A stretch of DNA of 29,943 nucleotides from a virus. Taxonomy: Duplodnaviria; Heunggongvirae; Uroviricota; Caudoviricetes. Positions 8,352-27,656 of this stretch are shown here, piece after piece. The translations under genes and the position numbers were made by a program. The notes beneath the pieces are model-generated. The model did no database searches. It worked only from the letters and a program-made list of their open reading frames with translations, and had not been told where the DNA came from. The DNA lies in IMG/VR virus record IMGVR_UViG_2740892488_000007; one strand, given 5' to 3'. How positions within the stretch are numbered: the stretch's first letter is position 1; each line of letters starts with the position of its first letter.

Positions 8352-9092
8352 TCATTGCGGATGTTTGTAATGTTTTTTTTTGCCTGTAACCCATGATGGT
8401 CGTGGTATTCCATAAGTTTTGCAGATCCACTTCAAGCGCCTGGAGTGATTTAGAGTCTTTTCTGTACACTTGTTCTTTTCTGCCCATGTTAAAGCAAAGC
8501 AACTATCCAGTGCCATATAAAGATACTGGAATTTTTCGAAGCTAAGGTATTGTGGGTTTTGGGATAAAAATAGTGCATGCACTATTGCTGCTATATTTAT
8601 TGGTGCGTGTTTGGTTTTTGTCTCGCTAGACATGTATTTGAGTGCTAATTCTATAACCTCTTTTTCAGAGCACTTGACCAGAATAAAGTCAGTTAATTTG
8701 CTGGGTTTTATTGGGGTTGCGTCTAAAAAACCGGCATCAGTAGTTGTTAATCTTATCCCTTTGAAAAAAGACAGACACCACACAGCAAAATTGAGAGTTT
8801 CTAGTGAAGATGTATTTTTTAATTTTAGTGAGTGTGTTTTGGGTAAGCCAAATACTCGTTGGCTAAAAGGCATTGTGGATATGCCTCCATTGAGGTTATA
8901 TACTTCTTGGTTTCCTGGGTATATCCAACCGTTAATAACATTTCTGTGATTGTTTATAAGATTTGTTTTTTCCGCTAGACCGGGTAAAGTAAGTAAAGAA
9001 AAATCATCAGTTTCAACGTTAACTTCTACTGGATAGTATCCAAACTCAGCTTCAATATCATTGGATTGCTGTTCGTCAACTTTACCTTGCAT
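8352..9092 (-). CDS. hypothetical protein (hotspot cargo); frame may continue to 8150 through an A9 tract
   Basis: 246-aa ORF with ATG at 9092-9090 and GGAG RBS. No motif I recognise. AT-rich. The C-terminus ...GKKKHYKHPQ runs through A9 on the coding strand (T9 at 8373-8381 on +); with A8 the frame would continue for 73 more codons to the stop at 8150. Confidence 0.5.
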   Translation of the reverse strand: MQGKVDEQQSNDIEAEFGYYPVEVNVETDDFSLLTLPGLAEKTNLINNHRNVINGWIYPGNQEVYNLNGGISTMPFSQRVFGLPKTHSLKLKNTSSLETLNFAVWCLSFFKGIRLTTTDAGFLDATPIKPSKLTDFILVKCSEKEVIELALKYMSSETKTKHAPINIAAIVHALFLSQNPQYLSFEKFQYLYMALDSCFALTWAEKNKCTEKTLNHSRRLKWICKTYGIPRPSWVTGKKKHYKHPQ

Positions 9093-9330
9093 ACATTGCT
9101 CCGGTCAAAAATAGGCTCGATAATTCTCGTAAGCCTATCATGTTCGCAAAGTATCCATACCTGTGGATTTTGTAAATTTAAGTTGATTTGTCATTAAATA
9201 AGCCGTTGCATGCAACAAGTGAATGTTTTTGCATGCGTCGGGGATGTCCGTTCAGGCTGCGTGCGGTCAGGACTGGTGCGGATCCATAGTATCTATGCAA
9301 CTGCATTAAAACCGCCCCATGAAGCGGGCG

Positions 9331-9349
9331 GGCGAGGCGGGGAAAGCAC
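9331..9349. other. cos site (19-nt cohesive-end sequence of P2-type phages)
   Basis: GGCGAGGCGGGGAAAGCAC matches the P2 cohesive-end sequence as I recall it; it lies about 170 bp beyond the 3' end of Q, as in P2. Confidence 0.65.
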
Positions 9350-9520
9350 TGCGCGCTGGCGGTGGTGCTGATTTTATTTTTTTCAGCGTCTGAGCGCGTC
9401 GTGATGGCGTTTAGATTGTTAGCCGGGGCGTTGGTGTGTCTGCGGGCTATTTTGTGCGGTGGTGAGCGTGTGAGGGCGTGATGGCGGGTTGTAAAAAAAG
9501 CCGCCCGCAGGCGGCGATAT

Positions 9521-10556
9521 TCAGCCGTTGTCAGTGTCCAGTGAGTAGTTTTTAAAGCGGATGACCTCCTGACCGAGCCAGCCGTTTATCTCGCGGATCC
9601 TGTCCTGTAGCGGGATAAGCTCATTGCGGACAAAGACCTTTGCCACTTTCTCAATATCACCCAGCGACCCGACGTTCTCCGGCTTGCCGCCCATCAACTG
9701 AAAGGGGATGCGGTGCGCGTCCAGCAGGTCAGCGGCGCTGGCTTTTTTTGATATTAAAAAATCGTCCTTCGTTGCCACTTCACTGAGCGGGATAATTTTG
9801 ATGCCGTCGGCTTTCCCCTGTGGGGCATAGAGAAACAGATTTTTAAAGTTGTTGCGGCCTTTCGACTTCACCATGTTTTCGCGGAGCATTTCGATATCGT
9901 TGCGATCCTGCACGGCATCGGTGACGTACATGATGTATCCGGCATGAGCACCGTTTTCGTAATACTTGCGGCGGAACAGCGTGGCTGATTCATTCAGCCA
10001 GGCAGAGTTAAGGGCGCTGAGATATTCCGGCAGGCCGTACAGCTCCTGATTAATATCCGGCTCCAGCAGGTGAAACACGGAACCGGGCGCGAAGGCTGTC
10101 GGTTCGTTGAAGGACGGCACCCACCAGTAAACATCCTCCTCCACGCCACGGCGGGTATATTTTGCCGGTGAGGTTTCCAGTCTGATGACCTTACCGGTGG
10201 TGCTGTAACGCTTTTCCAGAAACGCATTACCGAACACCAGAAAATCCAGCACAAAGCGGCTGAAATCCTGCTGGGACAGCCACGGATGCGGGATAAATGT
10301 CGAGGCCAGAATATTACGTTTGACGTAAATCGGTGAGCTGTGATGCACGGCAGCACGCAGGCTTTTTGCCAGACCAGTAAAGCTGACCGGTGGTTCATAC
10401 CATCTGCCGTTACTGATGCACTCGACGTAATCCAGAATGTCACGGCGGTCGAGTACCGGCACCGGCTCACCAAAGGTGAATGCTTCCATTTTCGGGGCGC
10501 TGGCGGTCATTTTTTTTTGCCGCAGGTTGCTGTGTTTTCCCTTTTTTCTTGCTCAT
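9521..10556 (-). CDS. Q: portal protein (P2 gpQ-like); N-terminal 15 codons out of frame at a T9 run
   Basis: 329-aa body ORF (9521-10510). An upstream ATG at 10556-10554 overlaps the P stop and has a GGAG RBS; it reads MSKKKGKTQQPAAKK and then falls out of frame at T9 (10510-10518). With T8 the protein would be 344 aa, the length I recall for P2 Q. Confidence 0.8.
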
Positions 10557-12328
10557 CAGTAAAACTCCAGAATGGTGGATGTCAGCGGGGTGCTGATACC
10601 GGCGGTGAGTGGCTCATTTAACAGGGCGTGCATGGTCGCCCAGGCGAGGTCGGCGTGGCTGGCTTCCTCGCTGCGGCTGGCCTCATAGGTGGCGCTGCGT
10701 CCGCTGCTGGTCATGGTCTTGCGGATAGCCATAAACGAGCTGGTGATGTCGGTGGCGCTGACGTCGTATTCCAGACAGCCACGGCGGATAACGTCTTTTG
10801 CCTTGAGCACCATTGCGGTTTTCATTTCCGGCGTGTAGCGGATATCACGCGCGGCGGGATAGAACGAGCGCACGAGCTGGAACACGCCGACACCGAGGCC
10901 GGTGGCATCAATTCCGATGTATTCGACGTTGTATTTTTCGGTGAGTTTGCGGATGGATTCAGCCTGGGTGGCAAAGTCCATGCCTTTCCACTGGTGACGC
11001 TCAAGTATTCTGAATTTGCCACCGGCCACCACCGGCGGTGCCAGCACCACGCATCCGGCGCTGTCGCCACGGTGTGACGGGTCGTAACCAATCCATACAG
11101 GGCGGGAGCCGAACGGATTGGCGGCAAACGGCGCATAGTCTTCCCATTCTTCCAGCGTATCGACCATGCAGCGTTGCAGCTCCTCGAACGGGAACACCGA
11201 CGCCTTGTCGTCAACAAATTCACACATGAACAGGTTTTTAAAATCGTCGGCGCTGTTTTCGCGTTTAAGCTGCTCAATGTCGAACAGCGTGCAGCCACCT
11301 TTCAGGGCGTCCTCAATGGTGACAATCTGCCGCCACTGGCCGTCCGCACAGAGAAGCCCACCGGCAAGGGCGTTATGACTGACGTCGATTTCCACACGTT
11401 CGGCGGCGCTGGCGCGTCCCCGGTTGAACAGTTCACCCGACCAGAACGGGTAGGCGTCGTGCGCCAGCGTGGATGGGGTGGAGAAATAGGTCGAACGCAG
11501 GTGACTCTGTGAGGCCATACCTGATGCCACCTTACGCAGTACCTGAAAATTCGGGATCCAGAAAATCTCATCGACGTACAGGTCGCCGTTATGGCTCTGT
11601 GCGGTGTTGGAGTTGGTGCCGAGAAAAATCAGTTTTGCGCCGTTATTGCCCAGGACAATCGGGTCACCGGTCAGGTCAACGTCAACCAGACGGGCAAAGG
11701 CGATGATGTATTCGCGGAACACATACGCCTGCGTTTTACTGGCCGACAGAAAAATCTGGTTATGACCGGTTTTCAGGGCGCGCAGCAGCGCCTCGCGGGA
11801 AAAATAAAACGTTGCGCCAATCTGGCGGGATTTCAGAATATCGCGGATGCGGTGCTCAAGCCCGGCGCGATACCAGTGCAGCTGATAGTCGAAAGACTGC
11901 TTAAAGAAAATCTGCTCCAGCTTTTCGATGGCCTCGTCACTGAAAAAATTCTTTTTCGGTTTGCGACGCCCGCCTTTGTTGCGGTTAGCGACGTTCGGAT
12001 TAAGGTCTGCCTCGTTGCCGGTCTGACTGTAGCGGTTGACCCGTGCCAGTCGTTCAATCTGGCGTCCGAGCAGGTCAATTTCCTTGAAGTCACCGCCGGT
12101 TTTCTGCGGTTTGATGATGAGCTGGGTCAGTCGCGCTTCCAGACTCATTTCGACACGGCTGATGGGGGCAACGCTGTCCCAGCCGTCGCGCTGTTTCCAG
12201 CTCTGCACCGTCGGGCGTTTCATCTGCAACATGGCGGCAATCTGCGGCACGGAAAACCCCTGCCAGTACAGCAGCGCCGCCTGACGACGCGGGTCGTGTA
12301 AAAGAGTGGTGTCTGTGGTGATGGTCAT
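10556..12328 (-). CDS. P: terminase large (ATPase) subunit (P2 gpP-like)
   Basis: 590 aa from ATG at 12328-12326 (the track ORF opens at a TTG at 12358). Divergent from O; length equals P2 P. Confidence 0.85.
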   Translation of the reverse strand: MTITTDTTLLHDPRRQAALLYWQGFSVPQIAAMLQMKRPTVQSWKQRDGWDSVAPISRVEMSLEARLTQLIIKPQKTGGDFKEIDLLGRQIERLARVNRYSQTGNEADLNPNVANRNKGGRRKPKKNFFSDEAIEKLEQIFFKQSFDYQLHWYRAGLEHRIRDILKSRQIGATFYFSREALLRALKTGHNQIFLSASKTQAYVFREYIIAFARLVDVDLTGDPIVLGNNGAKLIFLGTNSNTAQSHNGDLYVDEIFWIPNFQVLRKVASGMASQSHLRSTYFSTPSTLAHDAYPFWSGELFNRGRASAAERVEIDVSHNALAGGLLCADGQWRQIVTIEDALKGGCTLFDIEQLKRENSADDFKNLFMCEFVDDKASVFPFEELQRCMVDTLEEWEDYAPFAANPFGSRPVWIGYDPSHRGDSAGCVVLAPPVVAGGKFRILERHQWKGMDFATQAESIRKLTEKYNVEYIGIDATGLGVGVFQLVRSFYPAARDIRYTPEMKTAMVLKAKDVIRRGCLEYDVSATDITSSFMAIRKTMTSSGRSATYEASRSEEASHADLAWATMHALLNEPLTAGISTPLTSTILEFY

Positions 12329-12501
12329 GAATACCTCGCCGTGATGAATACACGGCAAGGCTACTGAGTCGCGCCCCGCGATTCGCTAAGGTGCTGTTGT
12401 GTCAGTGATAAGCCATCCGGGACTGATGGCGGAGGATGCGCATCGTCGGGAAACTGATGCCGACATGTGACTCCTCTAATCACTATTCAGGACTCCTGAC
12501 A

Positions 12502-13357
12502 ATGGCAAAAAAAAGTCTCAAAATTCTTTCGTATCGGCGTTGAGGGTGACACCTGTGACGGGCGTGTCATCAGTGCGCAGGATATTCAGGAAATGGCCGA
12601 AACCTTTGACCCGCGTGTCTATGGTTGCCGCATTAACCTGGAACATCTGCGCGGCATCCTGCCTGACGGCATCTTTAAACGTTATGGCGATGTGGTCGAA
12701 CTGAAGGCCGAAAAGATTGACGATGATTCGGCGCTGAAAGGCAAATGGGCGCTGTTTGCGAAAATCACCCCGACCGATGACCTTATCGCGATGAACAAGG
12801 CCGCGCAGAAGGTCTACACCTCAATGGAAATTCAGCCGAACTTTGCCAACACCGGCAAATGTTATCTGGTGGGGCTGGCCGTCACCGATGACCCGGCAAG
12901 CCTCGGCACGGAATACCTGGAATTCTGCCGCACGGCAAAACACAACCCCCTGAACCGCTTCAAATTAAGCCCTGAAAACCTGATTTCAGTGGCAACGCCC
13001 GTTGAGCTGGAATTTGAAGACCTGCCTGAAACCGTGTTCACCGCCCTGACCGAAAAGGTGAAATCCATTTTTGGCCGCAAACAGGCCAGCGATGACGCCC
13101 GTCTGAATGACGTGCATGAAGCGGTGACCGCTGTTGCTGAACATGTGCAGGAAAAACTGAGCGCCACTGAGCAGCGCCTCGCTGAGATGGAAACCGCCTT
13201 TTCCGCACTTAAGCAGGAGGTGACTGACAGGGCGGATGAAACCAGCCAGGCATTCACCCGCCTGAAAAACAGTCTCGACCACACCGAAAGTCTGACCCAG
13301 CAGCGCCGCAGCAAGGCCACCGGCGGTGGCGGTGACGCCCTGATGACGAACTGCTGA
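12502..13357 (+). CDS. O: capsid scaffold protein (P2 gpO-like); start region out of frame at an A8 run
   Basis: ATG at 12502 reads MAKK and then hits A8 (12507-12514) and stops after 13 codons. Removing one A gives a continuous 284-aa protein, the P2 O length. The body ORF is 12593-13357. Confidence 0.8.
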
Positions 13358-13415
13358 CCAGCGTCAGTCAGTCCGGGAAAACCTTCACGATTAACCCTTA
13401 ATTTCAGGAAAAACT

Positions 13416-14489
13416 ATGCGCCAGGAAACCCGCTTTAAATTTAATGCCTACCTGTCCCGTGTTGCCGAACTGAACGGCATCGACGCCGGTGATGTGTCGA
13501 AAAAATTCACCGTTGAACCGTCGGTCACCCAGACCCTGATGAACACCATGCAGGAGTCCTCTGACTTTCTGACCCGCATCAATATTGTGCCGGTCAGCGA
13601 AATGAAAGGGGAAAAAATTGGCATCGGTGTCACCGGCTCCATCGCCAGCACCACCGACACCGCCGGTGGCACCGAGCGTCAGCCGAAGGACTTCTCGAAG
13701 CTGGCGTCCAGTAAGTACGAATGCGACCAGATTAACTTCGATTTTTATATCCGCTACAAAACGCTTGACCTGTGGGCGCGTTATCAGGATTTCCAGCTCC
13801 GTGTCCGTAACGCCATTATCAAACGCCAGTCCCTTGATTTAATCATGGCCGGTTTTAACGGCGTGAAGCGTGCCGAAACCTCTGACCGCAGCAGCAATCC
13901 GATGCTGCAGGATGTGGCGGTCGGCTGGCTGCAGAAATACCGCAATGAAGCACCGGCGCGCGTGATGAGCAAGGTCACTGACGAGGAAGGGCACACCACC
14001 TCTGAGGTCATCCGCGTGGGTAAGGGCGGTGATTATGCCAGCCTCGATGCACTGGTGATGGATGCGACCAACAACCTGATTGAGCCGTGGTATCAGGAAG
14101 ACCCTGACCTTGTGGTGATTGTGGGGCGTCAGCTGCTGGCGGACAAATATTTCCCCATCGTCAACAAGGAGCAGGACAACAGCGAAATGCTGGCCGCTGA
14201 CGTCATCATCAGCCAGAAACGCATCGGCAACCTGCCAGCGGTACGCGTCCCGTACTTCCCGGCGGATGCGATGCTCATCACGAAGCTGGAAAACCTGTCC
14301 ATCTACTACATGGATGACAGCCATCGCCGCGTGATTGTGGAAAACCCGAAACTCGACCGCGTGGAGAACTACGAGTCAATGAACATTGATTACGTGGTGG
14401 AAGACTACGCCGCCGGTTGTCTGGTGGAAAAAATCAAGGTCGGTGATTTCTCCACACCGGCTAAGGCGACCGCAGAGCCGGGAGCGTAA
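13416..14489 (+). CDS. N: major capsid protein (P2 gpN-like)
   Basis: 357-aa ORF, same length as P2 N, in the O-N-M-L order. Confidence 0.85.
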   Translation: MRQETRFKFNAYLSRVAELNGIDAGDVSKKFTVEPSVTQTLMNTMQESSDFLTRINIVPVSEMKGEKIGIGVTGSIASTTDTAGGTERQPKDFSKLASSKYECDQINFDFYIRYKTLDLWARYQDFQLRVRNAIIKRQSLDLIMAGFNGVKRAETSDRSSNPMLQDVAVGWLQKYRNEAPARVMSKVTDEEGHTTSEVIRVGKGGDYASLDALVMDATNNLIEPWYQEDPDLVVIVGRQLLADKYFPIVNKEQDNSEMLAADVIISQKRIGNLPAVRVPYFPADAMLITKLENLSIYYMDDSHRRVIVENPKLDRVENYESMNIDYVVEDYAAGCLVEKIKVGDFSTPAKATAEPGA

Positions 14490-14492
14490 CCG

Positions 14493-15236
14493 ATGACGAG
14501 TCCCGCACAACGCCACATGATGCGGGTCTCGGCAGCGATAACCGCGCAGCGGGAGGCCGCCCCGCTGCGACATGCAACTGTCTATGAGCAGATGCTGGTT
14601 AAGCTCGCCGCAGACCAGCGCACACTGAAAGCGATTTATTCAAAAGAGCTGAAGGCCGCGAAAAAGCGCGAACTGCTGCCGTTCTGGTTGCCGTGGGTGA
14701 ACGGCGTGCTGGAGCAGGGCAAAGGTGCACAGGATGACATTCTGATGACAGTCATGCTGTGGCGTCTGGATACCGGCGATATTGCCGGTGCGCTGGAGAT
14801 TGCCCGTTATGCCCTGAAGTACGGTCTGACCATGCCGGGTAAACACCGCCGCACCCCGCCGTACATGTTCACCGAGGAGGTGGCGCTTGCGGCCATGCGC
14901 GCTCACGCTGCCGGTGAGTCTGTGGATCCCCGCCTGCTGACGGACACCCTCGAACTGACCGCCACGGCTGACATGCCTGATGAAGTGCGCGCAAAGCTGC
15001 ACAAAATCACCGGTCTGTTTCTGCGTGACGCTGGTGATGCCGCAGGGGCGCTGGCACACCTGCAACGTGCGACACAGCTCGACTGTCAGGCAGGCGTCAA
15101 AAAAGAGATTGAACGACTGGAGCGGGAGCTGAAACCGAAGCCGGAGCCGCAGCCCAAAGCGGCCACCCGCGCCCCGCGTAAGACCCGGAGCGTGACACCG
15201 GCAAAACGTGGACGCCCGAAAAAGAAAGCCAGTTAA
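14493..15236 (+). CDS. M: terminase small / endonuclease subunit (P2 gpM-like)
   Basis: 247-aa ORF following N, GGAG RBS; same length as P2 M. Confidence 0.8.
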   Translation: MTSPAQRHMMRVSAAITAQREAAPLRHATVYEQMLVKLAADQRTLKAIYSKELKAAKKRELLPFWLPWVNGVLEQGKGAQDDILMTVMLWRLDTGDIAGALEIARYALKYGLTMPGKHRRTPPYMFTEEVALAAMRAHAAGESVDPRLLTDTLELTATADMPDEVRAKLHKITGLFLRDAGDAAGALAHLQRATQLDCQAGVKKEIERLERELKPKPEPQPKAATRAPRKTRSVTPAKRGRPKKKAS

Positions 15237-15335
15237 CAACCGAATGCGCCCCGCGCCAGGGCGGCACGCCGGTCAGTGAGGGTGAATCACCTGACACTGC
15301 ACCGGCGTCCACCGCCCGACTTTTCAGAGGTGGTC

Positions 15336-15845
15336 ATGATGACGCTGATTATTCCGCGAAAGGAGGCTCCCGTGTCCGGTGAGGGTACGGTGGTCATCCC
15401 GCAACCGGCAGGCGACGAGCCGGTGATTAAAAACACGTTCTTTTTTCCCGATATCGACCCGAAGCGCGTCCGGGAACGTATGCGCCTTGAGCAGACCGTC
15501 GCCCCCGCCCGTCTGCGTGAGGCCATCAAGTCAGGTATGGCGGAGACGAATGCGGAGCTGTACGAGTACCGCGAACAGAAAATTGCCGCCGGTTTTACGC
15601 GTCTGGCGGACGTCCCGGCGGACGACATCGACGGTGAAAGCATCAAAGTTTTTTACTACGAGCGCGCCGTGTGTGCGATGGCGACCGCGTCGCTTTATGA
15701 GCGTTATCGCGGCGTGGATGCCAGTGCGAAAGGCGACAAGAAGGCTGACAGCATTGACAGCACCATTGATGAACTGTGGCGGGATATGCGCTGGGCGGTG
15801 GCGCGTATCCAGGACAAGCCGCGCTGCATCGTGAGTCAAATCTGA
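15336..15845 (+). CDS. L: head completion protein (P2 gpL-like)
   Basis: ATG at 15336 with AGAGG RBS gives 169 aa, the P2 L length (the track ORF opens further upstream). Confidence 0.75.
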   Translation: MMTLIIPRKEAPVSGEGTVVIPQPAGDEPVIKNTFFFPDIDPKRVRERMRLEQTVAPARLREAIKSGMAETNAELYEYREQKIAAGFTRLADVPADDIDGESIKVFYYERAVCAMATASLYERYRGVDASAKGDKKADSIDSTIDELWRDMRWAVARIQDKPRCIVSQI

Positions 15846-16048
15846 TGAAGACCTTTGCGCTACAGGGCGACACGCTCGACGCCATTTGTGTCCGGTATTA
15901 CGGGCGCACTGAGGGCGTGGTTGAGACCGTGCTCGCCGCAAATCCGGGACTGGCTGAACTGGGTGCGGTGCTGCCACACGGCACCGCCGTCGAACTGCCC
16001 GACGTTCAGACCGCGCCCGTGGCTGAAACTGTCAATCTGTGGGAGTAA
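15845..16048 (+). CDS. X: tail protein X (P2 gpX-like)
   Basis: 67-aa ORF whose ATG overlaps the L stop (TGATG); same length as P2 X. Confidence 0.7.
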   Translation: MKTFALQGDTLDAICVRYYGRTEGVVETVLAANPGLAELGAVLPHGTAVELPDVQTAPVAETVNLWE

Positions 16049-16051
16049 CGC

Positions 16052-16333
16052 ATGACAGCAGAAGAAAAAAGCGTCCTGTCGCTTTTCATGATTGGGGTGC
16101 TGATTGTTGTCGGCAAGGTGCTTGCCGGTGGTGAACCCATCACCCCGCGTCTGTTTATCGGGCGCATGTTGCTCGGTGGTTTTGTCTCGATGGTTGCCGG
16201 TGTTGTTCTGGTGCAGTTTCCTGACCTGTCACTGCCTGCGGTGTGCGGCATCGGCTCCATGCTGGGTATCGCTGGTTATCAGGTGATTGAGATTGCCATT
16301 CAGCGCCGCTTTAAGTGCAGGGGGAAACCGTAA
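16052..16333 (+). CDS. Y: holin (P2 gpY-like)
   Basis: 93-aa ORF with hydrophobic helices (LSLFMIGVLIVVGKVLAGG, LLGGFVSMVAGVVLVQF) and a charged C-terminus, directly upstream of the endolysin. Confidence 0.8.
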   Translation: MTAEEKSVLSLFMIGVLIVVGKVLAGGEPITPRLFIGRMLLGGFVSMVAGVVLVQFPDLSLPAVCGIGSMLGIAGYQVIEIAIQRRFKCRGKP

Positions 16334-16830
16334 TGCCGGTAATTAACACGCATCAGAATATCGCTGCCTTTCTCGACATGCTGGCCGTGTCCGAAGGGAC
16401 GGCGAATCATCCGCTGACGAAAAACCGGGGCTATGACGTGATAGTCACCGGAGTGGACGGGAAGCCGGAAATCTTCACCGACTACAGTGACCACCCGTTC
16501 GCACATGGCCGACCGGCGAAGGTGTTTAACCGTCGCGGTGAAAAATCCACGGCCTCCGGTCGCTATCAGCAGCTTTACCTGTTCTGGCCGCACTACCGCA
16601 AACAGCTTGCCCTGCCGGATTTCAGTCCGTTGTCGCAGGACAGACTCGCCATTCAGTTGATCCGCGAACGCGGTGCACTGGATGACATCCGGGCGGGACG
16701 CATTGAGCGCGCCATTTCACGCTGTCGCAATATCTGGGCGTCCCTGCCGGGTGCCGGTTACGGTCAGCGTGAGCATTCACTGGAAAAACTGGTCACCGTC
16801 TGGCGTACCGCTGGCGGCGTACCGGCTTAA
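16333..16830 (+). CDS. K: endolysin (P2 gpK-like)
   Basis: 165 aa from the ATG overlapping the Y stop; position between holin and LysA. Confidence 0.8.
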   Translation: MPVINTHQNIAAFLDMLAVSEGTANHPLTKNRGYDVIVTGVDGKPEIFTDYSDHPFAHGRPAKVFNRRGEKSTASGRYQQLYLFWPHYRKQLALPDFSPLSQDRLAIQLIRERGALDDIRAGRIERAISRCRNIWASLPGAGYGQREHSLEKLVTVWRTAGGVPA

Positions 16831-16844
16831 ACGGAGTAAACACC

Positions 16845-17270: not shown

Positions 17271-17683
17271 TGATTGTGCTGGTTGTGTTGTTATCACTGG
17301 CGGTGGCCGGTCTGTTTCTGGTGAAACACAAAAATGCCAGCCTGCGCGCCTCGCTGGACAGGGCGAACAACGTCGCCAGCGGGCAGCAGACGACCATCAC
17401 CGTGCTGAAAAATCAGCTTCATGTTGCCCTCACCAGGGCAGACAAAAACGAGCTGGCGCAGGTGGCACTGCGTCAGGAACTGGAAAACGCCGCGAAGCGT
17501 GAAGCACAGCGCGAGAAAACCATCACGAGGTTACTCAATGAAAACGAAGATTTTCGCCGCTGGTACGGCGCTGACCTGCCTGATGCTGTGCGCCGGTTGC
17601 ACCAGCGCCCCGCCTGCACTGACGCCAGTGATTGTCGCCAACGCCTGCCCGAAAGTGAGTCTTTGCCCGATGCCGGGCAGTGA
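17258..17683 (+). CDS. lysB: inner-membrane spanin (LysB, Rz-like)
   Basis: 141-aa ORF with an N-terminal TM helix (LMIVLVVLLSLAVAGLFLV) and a coiled-coil-like remainder. Confidence 0.75.
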   Translation: MSKLMIVLVVLLSLAVAGLFLVKHKNASLRASLDRANNVASGQQTTITVLKNQLHVALTRADKNELAQVALRQELENAAKREAQREKTITRLLNENEDFRRWYGADLPDAVRRLHQRPACTDASDCRQRLPESESLPDAGQ

Positions 17684-17828
17684 CCCGGAGACGAACGGCG
17701 ATTTAAGTGCCGATATCCGGCAGCTTGAGAACGCGCTGGCACGCTGTGCCAGCCAGGTAAAAATGATTAAACACTGTCAGGACGAAAACGATGCTCAAAC
17801 CCGACAGCCTGCGCAGGGCACTGACTGA
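17538..17828 (+). CDS. lysC: outer-membrane lipoprotein spanin (LysC, Rz1-like), overlapping lysB in another frame
   Basis: ATG at 17538 inside lysB in a different frame. 96 aa with a signal peptide and lipobox-like LCAGC, Pro-rich mature region. Confidence 0.7.
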   Translation: MKTKIFAAGTALTCLMLCAGCTSAPPALTPVIVANACPKVSLCPMPGSDPETNGDLSADIRQLENALARCASQVKMIKHCQDENDAQTRQPAQGTD

Positions 17829-18258
17829 TGCCGTCACGGTACTGAAAACCAGCCCCGAGATGCTGCGGATATTCGTGGATAACGGGAGTATTGCCTCCAC
17901 ACTGGCGACGTCGCTGTCATTCGAAAAGCGTTACACGCTCAATGTCATTGTGACCGACTTTACCGGTGATTTTGACCTGCTCATCGTGCCGGTGCTGGCG
18001 TGGCTGCGGAAAAATCAGCCCGACATCATGACCACCGACGAAGGCCAGAAAAAGGGCTTCACGTTTTATGCAGACATCAACAATGACAGCAGCTTTGATA
18101 TCAGCATCAGCCTGATGCTGACCGAGCGCACGCTGGTCAGTGAGGTTGACGGCGCACTGCATGTGAAGAATATCCCGGAACCTCCGCCGCCAGAGCCGGT
18201 CACCCGCCCGATGGAGCTTTATATCAATGGCGAACTGGTGAGCAAGTGGGATGAATGA
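17791..18258 (+). CDS. R: tail completion protein R
   Basis: 155-aa ORF, same length as P2 R, in R-S-V-W order. Confidence 0.8.
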   Translation: MLKPDSLRRALTDAVTVLKTSPEMLRIFVDNGSIASTLATSLSFEKRYTLNVIVTDFTGDFDLLIVPVLAWLRKNQPDIMTTDEGQKKGFTFYADINNDSSFDISISLMLTERTLVSEVDGALHVKNIPEPPPPEPVTRPMELYINGELVSKWDE

Positions 18259-18704
18259 GTTTAAGCGTTTTGAAGACCGGCTGACCGGACTTATTGAGTC
18301 GCTGTCACCGTCAGGGCGTCGGCGACTGAGTGCCGAACTGGCGAAACGCCTGCGGCAGAGTCAGCAGCGTCGGGTGATGGCACAGAAAGCTCCGGACGGC
18401 ACACCCTATGCGCCACGCCAGCAGCAGAGCGCCAGAAAAAAGACCGGTCGCGTTAAGCGAAAAATGTTTGCGAAACTTATCACCAGTCGTTTTTTTGCAT
18501 ATCCGCGCCAGCCCTGAACAGGCATCAATGGAGTTTTACGGCGGGAAGTCACCGAAAATCGCCAGTGTGCATCAGTTTGGTCTGTCGGAAGAAACCCGGA
18601 AAGACGGTAAGAAAATTGATTATCCTGCGCGTCCTCTGCTCGGCTTTACCGGTGAGGATGTGCAGATGATTGAAGAGATTATCCTGGCTCACCTTGAGCG
18701 TTAG
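18251..18704 (+). CDS. S: tail completion protein S; frame broken at a T7 run
   Basis: Two overlapping ORFs (18251-18517 and 18408-18704). T7 at 18490-18496; with T6 the reading is ...KLITSRFLHIRASPEQASMEFYGG... giving a continuous 150-aa protein, the P2 S length. Confidence 0.8.
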
Positions 18705-18770
18705 TTGTGCCATTCCCGACACCTCATCGTCACATTGCCGCCGGTATGACCCGGCGGCATCCTTCCCGTT

Positions 18771-19406
18771 ATGAACACTCTCGCAAATATTCAGGAACTC
18801 GCGCGCGCACTGCGCAACATGATTCGCACCGGCGTTATCGTCGAAACCGACCTTAACGCCGGTCTCTGCCGTGTGCAGACCGGCGGCATGTGTACCGACT
18901 GGCTGCAGTGGCTGACCCATCGCGCCGGTCGTTCGCGCACATGGTGGGCACCTTCCGTGGGGGAACAGGTGCTGATTCTGTCCGTGGGCGGTGAACTCGA
19001 CACGGCGTTTGTTCTGCCGGGGATTTATTCCGGCGATAATCCCGCACCGTCTGCGTCGGCGGATGCCCTGCATATCCGTTTCCCTGACGGGGCGGTGATT
19101 GAGTATGAACCCGAAACCAGTGCGCTCACGGTAAGCGGAATTAAAACGGCCAGTGTGACGGCTTCTGATTCTGTTACTGCCACGGTGCCGGTGGTCATGG
19201 TGAAAGCGTCAAACCGCATCACCCTGGACACACCGGAGGTGGTCTGCACCAACAGGCTGATTACCGGCACGCTGGAAGTGCAGAAGGGCGGGACGATGCG
19301 CGGCAACATTGAACACACCGGCGGTGAACTCTCATCAAACGGTAAGGTACTGCATACCCATAAACACCCCGGCGACAGCGGCGGCACAACCGGGAGTCCT
19401 TTATGA
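18771..19406 (+). CDS. V: baseplate spike protein V
   Basis: 211-aa ORF, same length as P2 V, with a Gly-rich C-terminal tip (HTHKHPGDSGGTTGSPL). Confidence 0.85.
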   Translation: MNTLANIQELARALRNMIRTGVIVETDLNAGLCRVQTGGMCTDWLQWLTHRAGRSRTWWAPSVGEQVLILSVGGELDTAFVLPGIYSGDNPAPSASADALHIRFPDGAVIEYEPETSALTVSGIKTASVTASDSVTATVPVVMVKASNRITLDTPEVVCTNRLITGTLEVQKGGTMRGNIEHTGGELSSNGKVLHTHKHPGDSGGTTGSPL

Positions 19407-19750
19407 CAGCGCGTTATCTCGGAATGAATCGCAGTGATGGCCTGACTGTCACTGACCTTGAGCATATCAGCCAGAGTATCGGCGATATCCTGCGCACACC
19501 GGTCGGCTCACGGGTGATGCGTCGTGATTACGGCTCGTTGCTGGCGTCAATGATTGACCAGCCGCAGACCCCGGCGCTTGAGTTGCAGATTAAGGTCGCC
19601 TGTTACATGGCGGTGCTGAAATGGGAACCCCGCGTCACCCTGTCATCCGTCACCACTGAGCGCAGTTTTGACGGGCGAATGACGGTCACGTTAACCGGCC
19701 AGCACAACGACACCGGCCAGCCACTTTCGTTAACCATCCCTGTGAGTTGA
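19403..19750 (+). CDS. W: baseplate wedge protein W (gp25-like)
   Basis: 115-aa ORF overlapping the V stop; same length as P2 W. Confidence 0.85.
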   Translation: MTARYLGMNRSDGLTVTDLEHISQSIGDILRTPVGSRVMRRDYGSLLASMIDQPQTPALELQIKVACYMAVLKWEPRVTLSSVTTERSFDGRMTVTLTGQHNDTGQPLSLTIPVS

Positions 19751-19754
19751 AACC

Positions 19755-20663
19755 ATGCCGATTATCGACCTGAACCAGCTACCCGCACCGGATGTGGTCG
19801 AGGAGCTGGACTTTGAAACCATTCTTGCCGAACGCAAGGCGACACTGATTTCCCTTTACCCGGAAGACCAGCAGGAGGCGGTCGCCCGTACCCTGACACT
19901 GGAATCTGAGCCTCTCGTCAAACTGCTGGAGGAAAATGCTTATCGTGAGCTTATCTGGCGTCAGCGTGTGAATGAGGCCGCACGGGCGGTGATGCTGGCC
20001 TGTGCCGCCGGTAATGACCTTGATGTGATTGGTGCCAATTACAACACCACGCGCCTGATTATCACCCCGGCAGATGATTCGACCATCCCGCCGACACCGG
20101 CAGTGATGGAATCTGACACCGATTATCGTCTGCGTATTCAGCAGGCGTTTGAAGGTTTAAGCGTCGCCGGGTCGGTGGGTGCCTATCAGTATCATGGACG
20201 CAGTGCTGACGGGCGTGTCGCGGATATCTCTGTCACCAGTCCGTCTCCGGCCTGTGTCACCATCTCTGTGCTGTCACGTGAAAATAACGGTGTCGCTTCC
20301 GAAGACCTGCTGGCGGTGGTGCGTAACGCCCTTAATGGTGAGGACGTCAGGCCGGTGGCCGACCGCGTGACCGTGCAGTCTGCCGCCATCGTTGAATACC
20401 AGATAAACGCCACGCTTTACCTTTACCCTGGTCCCGAAAGCGAACCCATCCGCGCTGCTGCCGTGAAAAAACTGGAAGCGTACATCACGGCACAGCACCG
20501 GCTGGGGCGCGACATCCGTCTGTCTGCCATTTATGCCGCTTTGCATGTGGAAGGCGTGCAGCGTGTCGAACTGGCTGCACCACTGGCCGACATCGTGCTC
20601 AACAATACGCAGGCGTCTTTCTGTACCGAATACCGCGTTGTGACCGGAGGCTCGGATGAGTGA
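19755..20663 (+). CDS. J: baseplate protein J
   Basis: 302-aa ORF, same length as P2 J. Confidence 0.85.
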   Translation: MPIIDLNQLPAPDVVEELDFETILAERKATLISLYPEDQQEAVARTLTLESEPLVKLLEENAYRELIWRQRVNEAARAVMLACAAGNDLDVIGANYNTTRLIITPADDSTIPPTPAVMESDTDYRLRIQQAFEGLSVAGSVGAYQYHGRSADGRVADISVTSPSPACVTISVLSRENNGVASEDLLAVVRNALNGEDVRPVADRVTVQSAAIVEYQINATLYLYPGPESEPIRAAAVKKLEAYITAQHRLGRDIRLSAIYAALHVEGVQRVELAAPLADIVLNNTQASFCTEYRVVTGGSDE

Positions 20664-21187
20664 TTCGCGCCTGCTGCCGACCGGCTCATCACCGCTTGAG
20701 GTCGCCGCCGCAAAAGCCTGTGCGGAAATTGAAAAAAACGCCGGTCAGTATTCGTGAGCTGTGGAACCCGGACACCTGCCCGGCAAATCTGCTGCCGTGG
20801 CTGGCGTGGGCGTTTTCGGTCGACAGGTGGGATGAAAAGTGGCCGGAAGCGACAAAACGCGCCGTTATCCGCGATGCCTATTTCATCCACTGTCATAAAG
20901 GCACTATCGGCGCAATCCGGCGTGTGGTGGAGCCGCTCGGCTATCTCATTAACGTAAAGGAATGGTGGGAGACAAACGACCCGCCCGGAACCTTTCGCCT
21001 TGATATCGGTGTGCTGGAAAGCGGCATCACGGAGGAGATGTATCTGGAAATGGAACGGCTGATTGCCGATGCCAAACCCGCAAGTCGCCACCTTATCGGT
21101 CTGAACATTATCCAGGACATTCCCGGCTATCTGTATACAGGCGGTGTGGTCTGTGATGGTGATGTTATTACTGTTTATCCCGGATAA
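20656..21187 (+). CDS. I: baseplate protein I; frame broken at an A7 run
   Basis: ATG at 20656 (GGAGG RBS, overlaps the J stop) reads MSDSRLLPTGSSPLEVAAAKACAEIEK, then A7 at 20732-20738 leads to a stop. With A6 the frame joins ...TPVSIRELWNPDT... to give 176 aa, the P2 I length. Confidence 0.8.
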
Positions 21188-21197
21188 GTGAGAAACA

Positions 21198-23817
21198 ATG
21201 AGCACGAAATTTAAAACCGTTATCACTACTGCCGGAGCCGCGAAGCTGGCAGCCGCTACTGTTCCCGGCGGGAAAAAAGTAAACCTGTCTGCAATGGCTG
21301 TGGGTGACGGTAATGGCCAATTGCCGGTGCCGGATGCCGGTCAGACGAAACTGGTGCATGAAGTCTGGCGTCACGCTCTGAATAAAGTCAGTGTGGATAA
21401 CAAGAATAAAAACTATATCGTGGCTGAACTGGTTGTTCCGCCAGAAGTGGGCGGCTTCTGGATGCGTGAGCTTGGTCTGTATGATGATGCCGGAACACTG
21501 ATTGCGGTATCCAACATGGCAGAAAGCTATAAGCCAGAACTGGCTGAAGGCTCCGGACGTGCGCAGACCTGCCGCATGGTTATTATTCTCAGTAACGTGG
21601 CGTCCGTTGAGCTGAGTATTGATGCCAGCACAGTGATGGCGACGCAGGATTACGTCGATGACAAAATCGCAGAGCATGAGCAGTCCCGCCGCCATCCTGA
21701 CGCCACACTGACAGAAAAAGGTTTTACTCAGTTAAGCAGTGCAACAAACAGCACCAGTGAGTCATTGGCGGCAACGCCAAAAGCGGTCAAGGCAGCAAAT
21801 GACAACGCAAATTCACGTCTGGCGAAAAATCAGAATGGTGCAGATATCCAGAATAAATCAGCTTTTCTGGAAAATGTTGGCGTTACCAGCCTGACGTTTA
21901 TGAAAAACAATGGCGAAATGCCGCTTGATGCTGATCTGAATACATTTGGTCCTGTTAAGGCTTATTCAGGTATCTGGTCTAAAGCAACATCCACCAACGC
22001 AACACTGGAGAAAAATTTCCCTGAAGACGGTGCAGTCGGTGTGCTTGAGGTATTCAATGGCGGTAATTTTGCAGGAATGCAGCGTTATACCACCAGAACA
22101 GGCAATGTTTATATGCGCAACCTTTCTGGCACCTGGAATGGCTCAGACGGTCCGTGGAGCTACTGGCGTCAGATTCAGTCAGCAACACGCCCCCTGAGTA
22201 CAACCATTGACCTGAACACGCTCGGAGGCGCAGAGCATCTTGGCTTATGGCGAAACAGTAGTGGCTCTATCGCTTCATTTGACCGCAACTATCCGGAAGA
22301 AGGAAGTTATGGTCAGGGACTCCTTGAAGTTCTTGAAGGTGGTGGGTACTCACGCATGCAACGCTACACGACCCGCCGTGGGGATGTATATGTTCGCTGC
22401 CTTTCTGCTACATGGAATGCAGAGAATCCACAGTGGGAACCGTGGTTAAGAGTCGGTCATCAGTCAGAGAGTCGTTATTACGACGGGGATTTGAATGATG
22501 TGACTTCACCAGGTATTTACAGCGTTACAGGTAAAGCGACCAACGGTCCAATACTGGACGGAAACGGCGTGACAGTCCTCGGGATTCTGGAAGTGTTGAG
22601 GCGCTTTGATGGTGTTAACGTATGGCAGCGTTATACAACTGCCGGAACAGGTGCAACCCTTAAAGGTCGCACGTTTGAGCGCGTCTATACCGGCAGCTCG
22701 TGGAGCGAATGGCGGGAAGTCTACACCTCGTATTCACTTCCCCTGAATCTGGGTATCGGCGGTGCTGTGGCAAAGCTCACCAGCATGGACTGGCAGACCT
22801 ACGACTTTGTGCCGGGCAGTCTGATAACCGTTCGGCTTGATAACATGACCAACATTCCCGACGGTATGGACTGGGGCGTCATTGATGGCAACCTGATAAA
22901 CATCGCAGTGGGTCCGAGTGATGATTCCGGTACGGGGCGCTCAATGCATGTATGGCGCAGCACCGTAAGTAAAGCGAACTACCGCTTTTTTTATGGTGCG
23001 TATTTCAGGAAATCCGGGAAGTCGCACGATCACCACAAGACGTGTGCCAATCATTGACGAAGCCCAGACATGGGCGGCGAAACAAACCTTCAGCGCCGGT
23101 CTTTCAGGCGAACTGTCCGGCAATGCTGCTACAGCAACAAAGCTGAAAACGGCAAGGACAATTAACGGCGTAAAATTTGACGGCTCGGCAAATATTGAAG
23201 CGTTTCCGCCAGGTGTTCCGCTGCCGTGGCCATCAGATACACCACCTGCAGGCTATGCAATTATGCAGGGGCAGACGTTTGATAAGGCTGCATATCCGAA
23301 ACTGGCTATTGCCTATCCTTCTGGTGTTATTCCAGATATGCGCGGCTGGACAATCAAGGGCAAACCCGCCAGTGGGCGTGCCGTATTGTCACAGGAACAG
23401 GACGGGATTAAATCGCATACTCACAGCGCCAGTGCGTCAAATACGGATTTAGGGACGAAAACGACCAGTTCATTTGATTACGGCACGAAGACAGTCAGTA
23501 CGTTTAACTACGGAACAAAAACCACTAATACCACAGGTAACCATACACATACCATTTACAGAGGGAATGCCAATACTAATGGTGAAACCGGTAAAACAGG
23601 CTTTGACAACCCATCGTTTAATGGCACATCAGGAGCTGCCGGGAATCATGCCCACACGGTAGATATTGGCGCACATAATCATACGGTTGGTATTGGTGCA
23701 CATTCACACACGGTTGCTATTGGCTCACACGGGCACTCTATTACCGTTAATGCTACAGGTAATACCGAAAACACCGTCAAAAACATCGCATTTAACTATA
23801 TTGTGAGGCTTGCATAA
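21198..23817 (+). CDS. H: tail fibre protein H; frame broken near a T7 run
   Basis: ORF 21198-23057 (619 aa) and ORF 22993-23817 (274 aa) overlap in different frames. The second frame opens only after a stop at 22966-22968, so the shift lies between 22969 and 23057; T7 at 22986-22992 is the likely site. Fusion gives about 872 aa. The C-terminal part is His-rich with HxH repeats. Confidence 0.75.
23656..23736 (+). repeat. 3 x 27-bp tandem repeat encoding TV(D/G/A)IG(A/S)HxH units in the tail-fibre tip
   Basis: Units at 23656-23682, 23683-23709 and 23710-23736 (ACGGTAGATATTGGCGCACATAATCAT / ACGGTTGGTATTGGTGCACATTCACAC / ACGGTTGCTATTGGCTCACACGGGCAC). Confidence 0.7.
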
Positions 23818-24396
23818 TGGCTTTCAGAATGAGTGCAGAAGCACAAACTATCCACGTATTTAATTTACTTGATGGAACCAATGAATTTATTGGGGAAAGT
23901 GACGCATATATCCCACCGTACACTGGCCTGCCTGCAAACAGTACAGATATTGCACCACCTGATATTCCAGCTGGTTATGCAGCCGTTTTCAATGCAGACG
24001 AAATGAAATGGGAACTGATGGAAGACCATCGCGGAAAGACTGTCTACGAAACGAAAACGGGAGCAGCCATTTATATTTCTGAACTTGGCGTATTACCTCC
24101 AGACGTGACAGCCATTTCCCCGGATGGGGATTATCAGAAATGGAACGGCAATGCGTGGGTGAATGATGAGAATGCAGAGCGTGATGCGCTTGTCAGAGCG
24201 GCGGAGTCTCAGAAGAAAGAGCAGATTGCATATGCAGGTGAAATCATTGCCACGCTGCAGGATGCTGTCGATTTAGATATGGCTACCGAGGAAGAAAAGT
24301 TAAGTCTGACACACTGGAAAAAAATACCGTGTGTTACTGAATCGCGTTCAGCCGGAAAATGCCCCGGATATTGAATGGCCGGAACTACCGCAATAA
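23817..24396 (+). CDS. G: tail fibre assembly protein (Tfa, gpG-like); C-terminus out of frame at an A7 run
   Basis: As written the ORF ends at 24374 with ...[20 protein letters not shown]. With A6 instead of A7 (24318-24324) the end reads ...[26 protein letters not shown], the conserved Tfa C-terminal pattern as I recall it, stopping at 24394-24396. Confidence 0.75.
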
Positions 24397-24528
24397 ACAC
24401 AGGCGGGCTGATTGCCCGCCTTTTCTTTACCGGTGGTTGTGCTGTTGATTAGCCAACCGGGACAAATAGCCTGACATCTCCGGCACAACTGAAAATACCA
24501 CTCACCCATTAACCACGGAGTTAAACGG

Positions 24529-25720
24529 ATGAGTGATTATCATCACGGCGTGCAGGTGCTGGAGATTAACGACGGCACCCGCGTCATTTCCACCGTATCA
24601 ACCGCCATTGTCGGCATGGTCTGCACAGCCAGCGATGCGGATGCGGAAACCTTCCCCCTCAATAAACCGGTGCTGATTACCAATGTGCAGAGCGCAATTG
24701 CAAAGGCCGGTAAAAAAAGGCACGCTGGCGGCGTCGTTGCAGGCCATCGCTGACCAGTCCAAACCGGTCACCGTTGTCGTGCGTGTTGAAGACGGCACAG
24801 GCGACGACGAAGAAACGAAACTCGCGCAGACCGTTTCCAATATCATCGGCACCACCGACGAAAACGGTCAGTACACCGGACTGAAAGCCCTGATGGGGGC
24901 TGAGTCGGTTACCGGCGTTAAACCGCGCATTCTTGGTGTGCCGGGGCTGGACACCAAAGAGGTTGCCGTCGCACTGGCATCGGTATGCCAGGAACTGAAT
25001 GCATTCGGGTATATCAGCGCATGGGGCTGTAAAACCATTTCCGAGGTGAAAGCCTACCGCCAGAATTTCAGCCAGCGTGAGCTGATGGTTATCTGGCCGG
25101 ATTTCCTCGCATGGGATACGGTCACCAGTACCACCGCCACCGCGTATGCCACCGCCCGTGCGCTGGGGCTGCGCGCTAAAATCGACCAGGAGCAGGGCTG
25201 GCATAAAACGCTGTCCAATGTCGGGGTAAACGGTGTTACCGGCATCAGTGCATCTGTATTCTGGGATTTGCAGAAGTCTGGCACTGATGCTGACCTGCTG
25301 AACGAGGCAGGCGTCACAACGCTGGTTCGCCGCGACGGTTTCCGTTTCTGGGGTAACCGTACCTGCTCCGATGACCCACTGTTCCTCTTTGAAAGCTACA
25401 CACGCACTGCGCAGGTACTGGCCGACACGATGGCTGAGGCGCACATGTGGGCTATTGATAAGCCCATCACCGCAACGCTGATTCGCGACATCATTGACGG
25501 CATCAATGCCAAATTCCGCGAACTGAAAAACAACGGTTATATCGTGGATGGCACATGCTGGTTCAGTGAAGAATCCAACGATGCGGAAACCCTCAAGGCC
25601 GGAAAACTGTATATCGACTACGACTATACCCCGGTGCCTCCCCTCGAAAACCTGACCCTGCGCCAGCGTATTACTTCAAGATACCTGGCAAGTCTGGTCA
25701 CCTCGGTTAACAGCAATTAA
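24529..25720 (+). CDS. FI: tail sheath protein FI; frame broken at an A7 run
   Basis: ORFs 24529-24753 and 24683-25720 overlap in different frames. A7 at 24712-24718; with A6 the reading is ...[21 protein letters not shown]... giving a continuous 396-aa protein, the P2 FI length. Confidence 0.8.
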
Positions 25721-27645: not shown

Positions 27646-27656
27646 TGGATCCCGTA

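Follow-up and report, generated by a model that had tools for sequence, protein, structure and literature searches.

A/T homopolymer frameshifts in a P2-like prophage of Escherichia coli RCE10 and their very probable origin as Ion Torrent consensus errors

Eight genes of one P2-like prophage, each split by a single extra base in a run of A or T, raise the question of whether a bacterium really carries such a set of frameshifts or whether its DNA has been misread. The stretch of DNA analyzed (the window) is 29,943 nt long. A sequence-only reading of it had proposed over-called homopolymers as the first interpretation of the eight breaks, and a cryptic element inactivated by slippage as the fallback.

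A P2-like prophage with eight split genes

The underlying element is an ordinary P2-like (Peduovirus) prophage at the cpxP-fieF site. Peduovirus genomes match it at 95-97% identity across about 75% of the query, and both its gene order (int-C-cox-B-A, Q-P-O-N-M-L...FI-FII-E) and its product names are those of P2. (Over 29,000 blocks of the collection encode its integrase protein.) The eight A/T runs named by the sequence-only reading have exactly the coordinates and lengths it gave them, and each splits an open reading frame (Table 1). Its claim that removal of a single base restores a continuous protein is confirmed at all eight sites by comparison with the intact proteins of a near-identical prophage in strain 21964 (GCF_060215785.1): the repaired orphan hotspot protein (313 aa), O (284), S (150), I (176), H (872), G (192) and FI (396) match with no mismatches, and repaired Q (344 aa) differs at three residues. 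The P2 annotation bears out the P2 lengths it cited for Q, O, S, I and FI, and its statement that there are no nonsense codons elsewhere holds as well; the lone substitution in 29.4 kb, at 15269, is intergenic.

The extra base at 8373-8381 cuts the orphan hotspot gene into ORFs of 246 and 87 aa, while the source annotation represents Q by a 329-aa remnant that starts at Met16. Among recorded proteins, none was found for the products that would arise only through the frameshifts in FI (74 and 345 aa), H (619 aa) and G (185 aa), and it is likely that the source annotation treats these genes as pseudogenes. Scans against Pfam and PADLOC gave no matches for the 313-aa orphan protein or for a 199-aa protein.

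The tape-measure gene T is interrupted by ISEc12, an insertion that is absent from the sequence-only reading. L001 shows its 7-bp duplication (CAGCGAG), gene T is uninterrupted in L023 (815 aa), and strain 21964 has the same ISEc12 insertion with every late gene intact. The insertion is probably the genuine inactivating lesion of this prophage lineage, and the lineage itself is probably defective. Since ISEc12 in T should already block the formation of functional tails, induction with mitomycin C would be uninformative about the homopolymers.

Table 1. Altered A/T tracts and the ISEc12 insertion, in window coordinates
Feature	Position	Strand	Length at other loci	Location and effect
A8	6036-6043		7 at 7/7	Intergenic (L001 annotation), downstream of replication gene A
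T8	6060-6067		7 at 7/7	Intergenic (L001 annotation), downstream of replication gene A
T7	6893-6899		T6 at 8/8	Intergenic, ~17 nt upstream of M78-peptidase gene start (6916)
T9	8373-8381	-	T8 in relatives	Orphan hotspot gene (8150-9092), split
T7	9377-9383		T6 at 88/90; T7 in L095, L114	Intergenic, orphan gene / Q interval
A7	9493-9499		A6 at 78/78	Intergenic, adjoining terminator-like hairpin downstream of Q
T7 (+1) and A6 (-1)	9743-9749 and 9756-9761	-	T6 and A7 at 95/95 and in P2	Q, compensated pair (9743-9761)
T9	10510-10518	-	T8 at 54/54	Portal gene Q (9521-10556), broken at codon 16
A8	12507-12514	+	A7 at 133/133 and in P2	Scaffold gene O (12502-13357), broken at codons 3-4
T7	18490-18496	+	T6 at 129/129	Tail-completion gene S (18251-18704), broken
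A7	20732-20738	+	A6 at 80/80	Baseplate gene I (20656-21187), broken
T7	22986-22992	+	T6 at 31/31	Tail-fibre gene H (21198-23817), broken
A7	24318-24324	+	A6 at 18/18	Tail-fibre assembly gene G (23817-24396), broken
A7	24712-24718	+	A6 at 58/58	Tail-sheath gene FI (24529-25720), broken
ISEc12 (IS21 family, 2579 bp)	26811-29389	-		~80 nt into tape-measure gene T
istB of ISEc12	26896-27645			
istA of ISEc12	27657-29198			

Source of the window and spectrum of its changes

Only one contig on record encodes the 329-aa Q remnant, LAXA01000001.1 of GCA_001630975.1; this contig matches positions 1-20510 of the window at 100% identity, and the window originates from E. coli RCE10. The RCE10 genome (LAXA00000000) is a MIRA 4.0 assembly of reads from an Ion Torrent PGM run on the 318 chip (PMC5517970), and the contig match together with this description establishes a flow-based origin for the window. 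The authors of the RCE10 genome themselves ascribe "artificial frame shifts" to homopolymer errors, some of them still remaining, and their tool HomoHomo lowers such errors only about 2.5-fold (PMC5517970).

Comparison with the strain 21964 prophage over 29,391 nt yields 15 single-base indels (14 gains and 1 loss) and one substitution, so that the earlier list of eight sites, all of them confirmed, is incomplete. Five further gains are intergenic, and two of these (A8 at 6036 and T8 at 6060) flank a GC-rich hairpin (CCACC...GGTGG). The remaining two changes form a compensated pair within Q. The T run at 9743-9749, which had been cited as an unaffected in-frame run, is itself one base too long, and the A run at 9756-9761, 6 nt downstream, is one base short; the net frame is kept, with residues 267-269 changed from FNI to LIS. 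The assertion that all changes are +1 and none -1 is therefore right for the eight breaks but not for the window.

All 15 indels fall in A/T runs of at least 6, which make up 1.04% of bases, a coincidence far beyond chance. None of the A/T runs of 3 (583 runs), 4 (215) or 5 (82) is altered, 0 of 880 together, as against 9 of 40 runs of 6, 4 of 7 runs of 7, and both runs of 8. The 479 G/C runs, the longest of which is 5, are all unaltered. Altered tracts are found in coding (10 of 36) and non-coding DNA (5 of 13) alike (Fisher p = 0.50). Near-pure homopolymer indels, commoner with longer runs, are what a consensus artefact should leave behind. In pseudogenes made by real slippage, substitutions should be no rarer than indels, and the window has 1 against 15 (1:17 if the host flank is included). 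Even mismatch-repair (MMR)-deficient E. coli, in which 30,061 substitutions were recorded to 5,324 indels, accumulates about 5.6 substitutions per indel (PMC8510543); under that spectrum, the probability of at least 15 indels among 16 changes is 6e-12.

The same pattern continues into the chromosome. The 480 nt of host DNA that adjoin the window in the same source contig contain no substitutions and two gains, one in cpxP (T7, contig positions about 93,995-94,001) and one in an intergenic spacer (A9, about 94,258-94,266), which brings the altered sites to 17. The gene cpxP, just outside the prophage, is frameshifted by its gain (AEKMANEQ becomes AEKNGE*). With cpxP and a spacer both altered, the changes respect neither coding status nor the boundary between prophage and host, as expected of an artefact; the lesions of a cryptic prophage should be limited to the element under relaxed selection, and these are not.

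Tract lengths in relatives and in other datasets

At 13 of the 15 sites, the tract length found in the window is carried by none of the 7-133 other loci available per site. In the comparison with intact P2-like phages that had been suggested as a check, P2 has the short tracts, and at these 13 sites the long ones occur in no relative. Homologues sharing both the long tracts and the split ORFs, which would speak against an artefact, were looked for among 18-133 relatives per site and none shares the late-gene breaks; related strains have not inherited these lesions, as they might from a cryptic prophage. The converse possibility, that the strain 21964 sequence is under-called, was rejected given the agreement on short tracts of the 7-133 other loci per site, P2, and the intact ORFs.

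Two sites show the long form elsewhere. The T7 at 9377 occurs in L095 and L114, both IMG/VR contigs, whose other tracts are normal. The T9 at 8373 is found in 0 of 47 complete E. coli genomes in its exact form, and the 40 matches listed from a search with this site all span 150 of 151 query bases, that is, T8. The only other T9 carriers are two Salmonella datasets, Salmonella Infantis BLQI01 (GCA_011957465.1) and DRR191002. These were considered as independent support for a real polymorphism and rejected, as both were produced on the Ion GeneStudio S5, an Ion Torrent instrument, and BLQI01 has further differences of the same sort: compared with its near-identical relative L007 it shows 3 gaps, all +1 in A runs. 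The aberrant length is thus reproduced in Ion S5 datasets only, and not in assemblies from accurate platforms.

Origin of the extra bases

We are highly confident that the extra A/T bases arose as consensus errors in the Ion Torrent assembly and are not mutations; in the bacterium itself, the eight genes are almost certainly intact. The over-call artefact that the sequence-only reading put first is supported by circumstantial evidence that converges from several sides: the source is an Ion Torrent PGM and MIRA assembly whose authors admit residual artificial frameshifts; the spectrum of 15 indels to 1 substitution depends on run length and is blind to coding status; the host gene cpxP has the same defect outside the prophage; the long tracts are missing from relatives and P2; and the sole shared long break, T9 at 8373, recurs solely in other Ion Torrent data.

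On Ion Torrent instruments, a homopolymer is recorded as one analogue signal and converted to a count, with accuracy falling as the run lengthens. In the MIRA 4.0 assembly of RCE10, A/T runs of at least 6 were very probably often called one base too long, which would produce the artificial +1 frameshifts in eight prophage genes and the five changed intergenic tracts; miscalls would likewise produce the compensated pair in Q and the broken neighbouring cpxP. The authors' reference-guided correction cleared only part of such errors, and the reads themselves are presumably ambiguous or biased at the altered sites. Known flow-based errors (Ion Torrent, 454) resemble the changes seen here in being homopolymer-only indels that rise steeply with run length, in affecting A/T flows worst, in being blind to gene content, and in creating artificial frameshifts while substitutions are called accurately (PMC3623719, PMC5517970). 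High-frequency indel errors of the PGM are mostly A/T insertions (PMC3623719). In one respect the likeness fails: raw PGM reads mostly under-call long homopolymers (PMC3623719), whereas the window consensus is over-called 14:1, so that 14 of the 15 changes run against the expectation from raw reads. Empirically, the +1 direction is a property of such consensus sequences, since the Ion S5 Salmonella assembly is also +1.

That the changes are instead real slippage mutations, +1 events in A/T tracts that inactivated eight late genes of a cryptic prophage under relaxed selection, is highly improbable. With ISEc12 in T the lineage was probably already defective, so selection on its late genes could be relaxed, and the indel rate does depend on homopolymer run length (PMC8510543). 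Pseudogenes formed by replication slippage, in MMR-deficient lineages or decaying prophages, also share with the window their single-base indels in mononucleotide runs (PMC8510543). They are nevertheless dominated by substitutions even without MMR, and neutral decay would have added substitutions here, not one against 15 indels. Furthermore, the strain 21964 prophage keeps its late genes in frame despite the same ISEc12, the late-gene breaks are common to no relative, cpxP and the host spacer are changed alike, and the platform and pipeline are known for exactly such an artefact. The fallback reading of a slippage-inactivated element is therefore not supported, and any defect of the prophage comes from ISEc12 in T. 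Extending slippage to the whole chromosome, with RCE10 as a true hypermutator (e.g. mismatch-repair deficient) whose insertion-biased expansions are real throughout, would accommodate the changes in host DNA, and loss of MMR does raise homopolymer indel rates (PMC8510543). Such lines remain substitution-rich, however, at odds with the ratio of 1:15, and the 14:1 bias of gains over losses would be left unexplained, as would the recurrence of the T8 to T9 change in Salmonella data that are unrelated but come from the same platform. Moreover, with about 22% of A/T 6-mers, 57% of 7-mers and all 8-mers altered, the per-tract rates would extrapolate to a 5-Mb genome with some 3,000 tracts altered, the majority inside genes; such a load would not be credible for a viable, culturable isolate, and this counts for the artefact. 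We consider a hypermutator exceedingly improbable.

A mixed case, with mostly artefactual changes but true length variation, within the population or between strains, in one or a few of the longest tracts (T8/T9 at 8373 or 10510, or T6/T7 at 9377), is very unlikely. Tracts of 8-9 nt are established as the most prone to slippage in vivo, and the two IMG/VR contigs with T7 at 9377 and otherwise normal tracts would fit it. The T9 at 8373, however, is confined to Ion Torrent datasets, the T9 at 10510 is seen at none of 54 loci, and nothing points to a functional role. That a minority of the longest tracts vary in vivo to switch the hotspot cargo gene or the portal gene stochastically on and off, the consensus having caught the "off" state, is very unlikely. 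In principle, expression might be switched by homopolymers close to the 5' end of a gene, as in Q and O, in the manner of phase-variable contingency loci, but phase variation was rejected at these sites, where 54-133 relatives show no tract-length polymorphism; in addition, a host gene and tracts between genes are altered to the same degree, and tracts of 6-8 nt are ordinary here. Programmed frameshifting and transcriptional slippage were likewise rejected, as the eight sites are in frame in P2 and in every other relative. The prophage does contain a T-rich slippery run, GGTTTTTTG at 26554-26562, which is annotated in P2 as the programmed -1 ribosomal frameshift site of E/E+E'. Unlike the eight sites, this run does not differ between the window, strain 21964 and P2, and both frames are conserved.

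The frameshifts are a data artefact and bring no new biology. Had they been real, they would represent an unprecedented, insertion-only mutational process, against which every test argues. As over-calls, they indicate that GCA_001630975.1 and similar Ion Torrent drafts contain many artificial frameshifts in A/T runs, at roughly 0.5 per kb, affecting on this evidence about one in four 6-mers and the majority of runs of at least 7. The truncated products of such assemblies pass into protein databases and gene-content comparisons, into counts of pseudogenes and into claims of "cryptic prophages", and two from this prophage, the 329-aa fragment of Q and the 246-aa fragment of the orphan gene, are already on record as proteins.

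The deposited sequence and its frame breaks

The window holds a P2-like (Peduovirus) prophage ordered int, C/cox/B/A, a cargo "hotspot" and Q-P (minus strand), followed on the plus strand by O-N-M-L-X-Y-K-lysABC-R-S-V-W-J-I-H-G-FI-FII-E/E'. Identity to sequenced Peduovirus genomes is 95-97%, spanning about three quarters of the region. Identity to a prophage of E. coli strain 21964 (NZ_CM190142.1, L001), located between cpxP and fieF with all its genes annotated as intact, is 99.95%.

Features of the window and the eight gene-breaking tracts
Feature	Position	Strand	Remark
Integrase gene	1-981	-	window begins exactly at its stop codon
capP-like M78 (ImmA/IrrE) peptidase gene	6916-7401		PADLOC capP, E = 1e-30
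199-aa protein gene	7468-8067		hotspot cargo
313-aa orphan gene	8150-9092	-	hotspot cargo
T9, orphan gene	8373-8381		repaired protein 313 aa
T9, Q	10510-10518		repaired protein 344 aa
A8, O	12507-12514		repaired protein 284 aa
T7, S	18490-18496		repaired protein 150 aa
A7, I	20732-20738		repaired protein 176 aa
T7, H	22986-22992		repaired protein 872 aa
A7, G	24318-24324		repaired protein 192 aa
A7, FI	24712-24718		repaired protein 396 aa
P2 E/E+E' programmed -1 frameshift site GGTTTTTTG	26554-26562		genuine; contains T6 run
ISEc12	26811-29389	-	IS21 family, 2579 bp; istB + istA; about 80 nt into tape-measure gene T

In the sequence as deposited, the broken genes are real. All eight homopolymers have the positions and lengths claimed in the sequence-only reading, a split ORF coincides with each, and deleting one base per site restores a continuous protein, in seven of eight cases with 0 mismatches to the intact strain 21964 protein; repaired Q differs from its strain 21964 counterpart at three residues. 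The claim that Q, O, S, I and FI regain exactly their P2 lengths is correct, while H and G do not match P2 (669 aa and 175 aa), as expected of tail-fibre genes.

Compared base by base with L001 over 29,391 aligned bases, the window is one base longer at 14 places, one base shorter at one, and shows a single substitution (an intergenic C/T at 15269), 16 differences altogether. A/T homopolymers hold all 15 indels. The eight breaks stand, but the pattern first described was incomplete, missing five intergenic gains (6036, 6060, 6893, 9377 and 9493) and a compensated pair in Q. The T7 at 9743-9749, cited as a run that escaped the problem, also exceeds its L001 counterpart by one base and is followed 6 nt later by a one-base loss in the A run at 9756-9761, the pair altering Q residues 267-269 from FNI to LIS.

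Changes from L001 affect 0/583 A/T runs of length 3, 0/82 of length 5, 9/40 of length 6, 4/7 of length 7 and 2/2 of length 8, and 0/479 G/C runs (longest, 5). For length 4 we adopt 0/215, although the run-length table flags one changed run; runs of 6, 7 and 8 account for all 15 indels, so the flag is taken to be a double count under the one-base adjacency rule. A/T runs of at least 6 make up 1.04% of bases and hold every indel, and changed tracts are as common in coding (10/36) as in non-coding sequence (5/13; Fisher p = 0.50). The process is therefore length-dependent and blind to gene content. The T6 within GGTTTTTTG is a 6-mer that was not miscalled, since it is the same in the window, strain 21964 and P2. 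At 6036-6067, downstream of gene A, A8-CCACCCTGGCAGGTGG-T8 resembles a bidirectional rho-independent terminator in shape; its A8 and T8 are each one base longer than in relatives.

Source of the sequence and the adjoining host DNA

Among 153 billion gene positions, a 329-aa Q remnant with the T9 break as well as the LIS variant is recorded in a single contig (LAXA01000001.1, GCA_001630975.1), which matches window 1-20510 at 100% identity. LAXA00000000 is E. coli RCE10, which belongs to phylogroup B2 and was isolated from a patient with Crohn's disease (PMC5517970; BMC Genomics 2017;18:544). Its reads came from an Ion Torrent PGM (318 chip, 200-bp kit), and MIRA 4.0 was the assembler. The authors state that homopolymer errors cause artificial frameshifts and that their correction tool, HomoHomo, lowers these only about 2.5-fold, so on their own account a substantial fraction persists (PMC5517970). 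The source annotation gives O as a 274-aa remnant (L004, the source-contig locus, 7154-7978 = window 12533-13357) starting at window 12533, an Ile codon of native ...FFRIGVEG... rather than ATG, GTG or TTG. The case illustrates the strange gene models and truncated database entries that artefactual frameshifts produce.

Changes confined to the prophage, as a cryptic element would have them, are not what the contig contains. The 480 nt of host DNA left of the window differ from strain 21964 by 0 substitutions and 2 single-base gains, one in the cpxP-int spacer (A8 to A9) and one inside conserved cpxP (A6 to A7 on the coding strand, T6 to T7 on the other), which truncates CpxP from …AEKMANEQ… to …AEKNGE*. 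This stretch has three A/T runs of at least 6, and two are changed, matching the rates within the prophage.

Tract lengths in relatives and the rival readings

The sequence-only reading had proposed comparing tract lengths with intact P2-like phages. P2 is short at every locatable site. Among 173 other loci, comprising IMG/VR P2-like contigs plus further loci and not all independent (some share one contig), the window's tract length is found in none at 13 of 15 sites (7, 7, 8, 78, 95, 95, 54, 133, 129, 80, 31, 18 and 58 loci per site). One exception is the intergenic T7 at 9377, present in 2/90 loci whose tracts are otherwise normal. The other is the T9 at 8373, shared with two Salmonella Infantis loci, L002 (SI19A061, BLQI01) and L003 (Logan assembly of run DRR191002, SI23A178). 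Both strains were sequenced on the Ion GeneStudio S5, BLQI01 being assembled with CLC (PMC7378023). At first sight this T9 looks like the refuting case named in the sequence-only reading, a homologue whose tract is equally long and whose ORF is split alike. That was rejected: its other carriers are both Ion S5 sequences, and it occurs in 0/47 complete E. coli genomes carrying the orphan gene. Finding the same over-call in the same tract with the same chemistry, from another laboratory, species and assembler, is instead positive evidence for systematic platform error. One substitution separates L002 from its relative L007 (99.97% identical), along with three gaps, each a one-base gain in an A run (A8 to A9 at one, A7 to A8 at two), and L003 shows one additional T-run length difference from L002.

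Terminase small-subunit gene M is split in L002 (3860-4604, GCA_011957465.1) into 163-aa and 81-aa ORFs, a break absent from the window that fits assembly-specific random errors. In L011 (AP022360.1, GCA_010725135.1), evidently an error-rich "complete" genome, host cpxA, sodA, rhaT, kdgT and others are split into several short ORFs, as are prophage genes A, B and P.

The extra bases are almost certainly a homopolymer over-call artefact and not a biological feature, as the sequence-only reading first supposed; the Ion Torrent source, the indel spectrum, the hit in host cpxP and the short tracts of relatives all support this. Indel rates also climb with run length in vivo (PMC8510543), so real slippage under relaxed selection on a cryptic prophage warrants a quantitative test, for which mismatch-repair (MMR) deficiency was chosen as the realistic state richest in indels. 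Pooled mutation-accumulation lines of MMR-deficient E. coli yielded 30,061 substitutions and 5,324 small indels (PMC8510543); under that spectrum, at least 15 indels among 16 changes has P = 6e-12, and adding the host flank (17/18 indels) gives P = 1.6e-13. Relaxed selection would not explain the pattern either, since it would not remove substitutions and would not reach host cpxP, and strain 21964 has the same IS insertion yet intact genes. A genome-wide mutator fails, contradicted by the mutation spectrum, by the 14:1 bias towards gains and by viability: extrapolating per-tract rates over the tract density of sampled E. coli host DNA predicts about 0.6 changes/kb, roughly 3,000 per genome, which would break a large share of genes, essential ones included, in a routinely cultured strain. 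Programmed frameshifting and phase variation were rejected, every relative being in frame and without tract-length polymorphism.

Raw PGM reads tend to give short homopolymers too many bases and long ones too few, with 6-mer accuracy of about 68% and A/T flows the most error-prone; "high-frequency indel" errors are mostly A/T insertions and lead to assembly frameshifts (Bragg et al., PMC3623719). Because early-kit raw reads under-call long runs, the near-exclusive gains in the window consensus are not as predicted. The bias may come from the base-caller version, MIRA consensus rules or asymmetric HomoHomo correction. The independent Ion S5 assembly (L002) shares the window's direction, so this caveat bears on how the bias arises and not on the diagnosis of over-calling. 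In practice, the result flags the RCE10 assembly and comparable Ion Torrent drafts, together with the truncated proteins they have put into databases.

ISEc12, the right end and the hotspot cargo

The ISEc12 insertion is a genuine, inherited lesion; with it, this prophage lineage is probably tail-defective whatever the homopolymers. It is flanked in L001 by a 7-bp duplication (CAGCGAG) and annotated under the match in 15/15 of the best-matching complete E. coli genomes listed (H16-H30); in a relative, L023, gene T is an uninterrupted 815-aa ORF. Beyond the element, 29390-29943 is not gene T but a "GTP-binding protein" pseudogene remnant adjoining papX in a pap pathogenicity island, and the 7 bp beside ISEc12 there (CACTGAA) are unlike the duplication. 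This junction may reflect a real ISEc12-ISEc12 rearrangement or, just as plausibly, a chimeric join across a collapsed multi-copy 2.5-kb repeat, which 200-bp reads are too short to span.

The three-gene cargo (6916-9092) occupies the position of the P2 old/tin hotspot and is possibly an uncharacterised defence cassette. Pfam and PADLOC scans gave no match for the 199-aa protein or the orphan protein. Near-identical cargo is present in the cpxP-site prophage of Salmonella Infantis (L002, L007).
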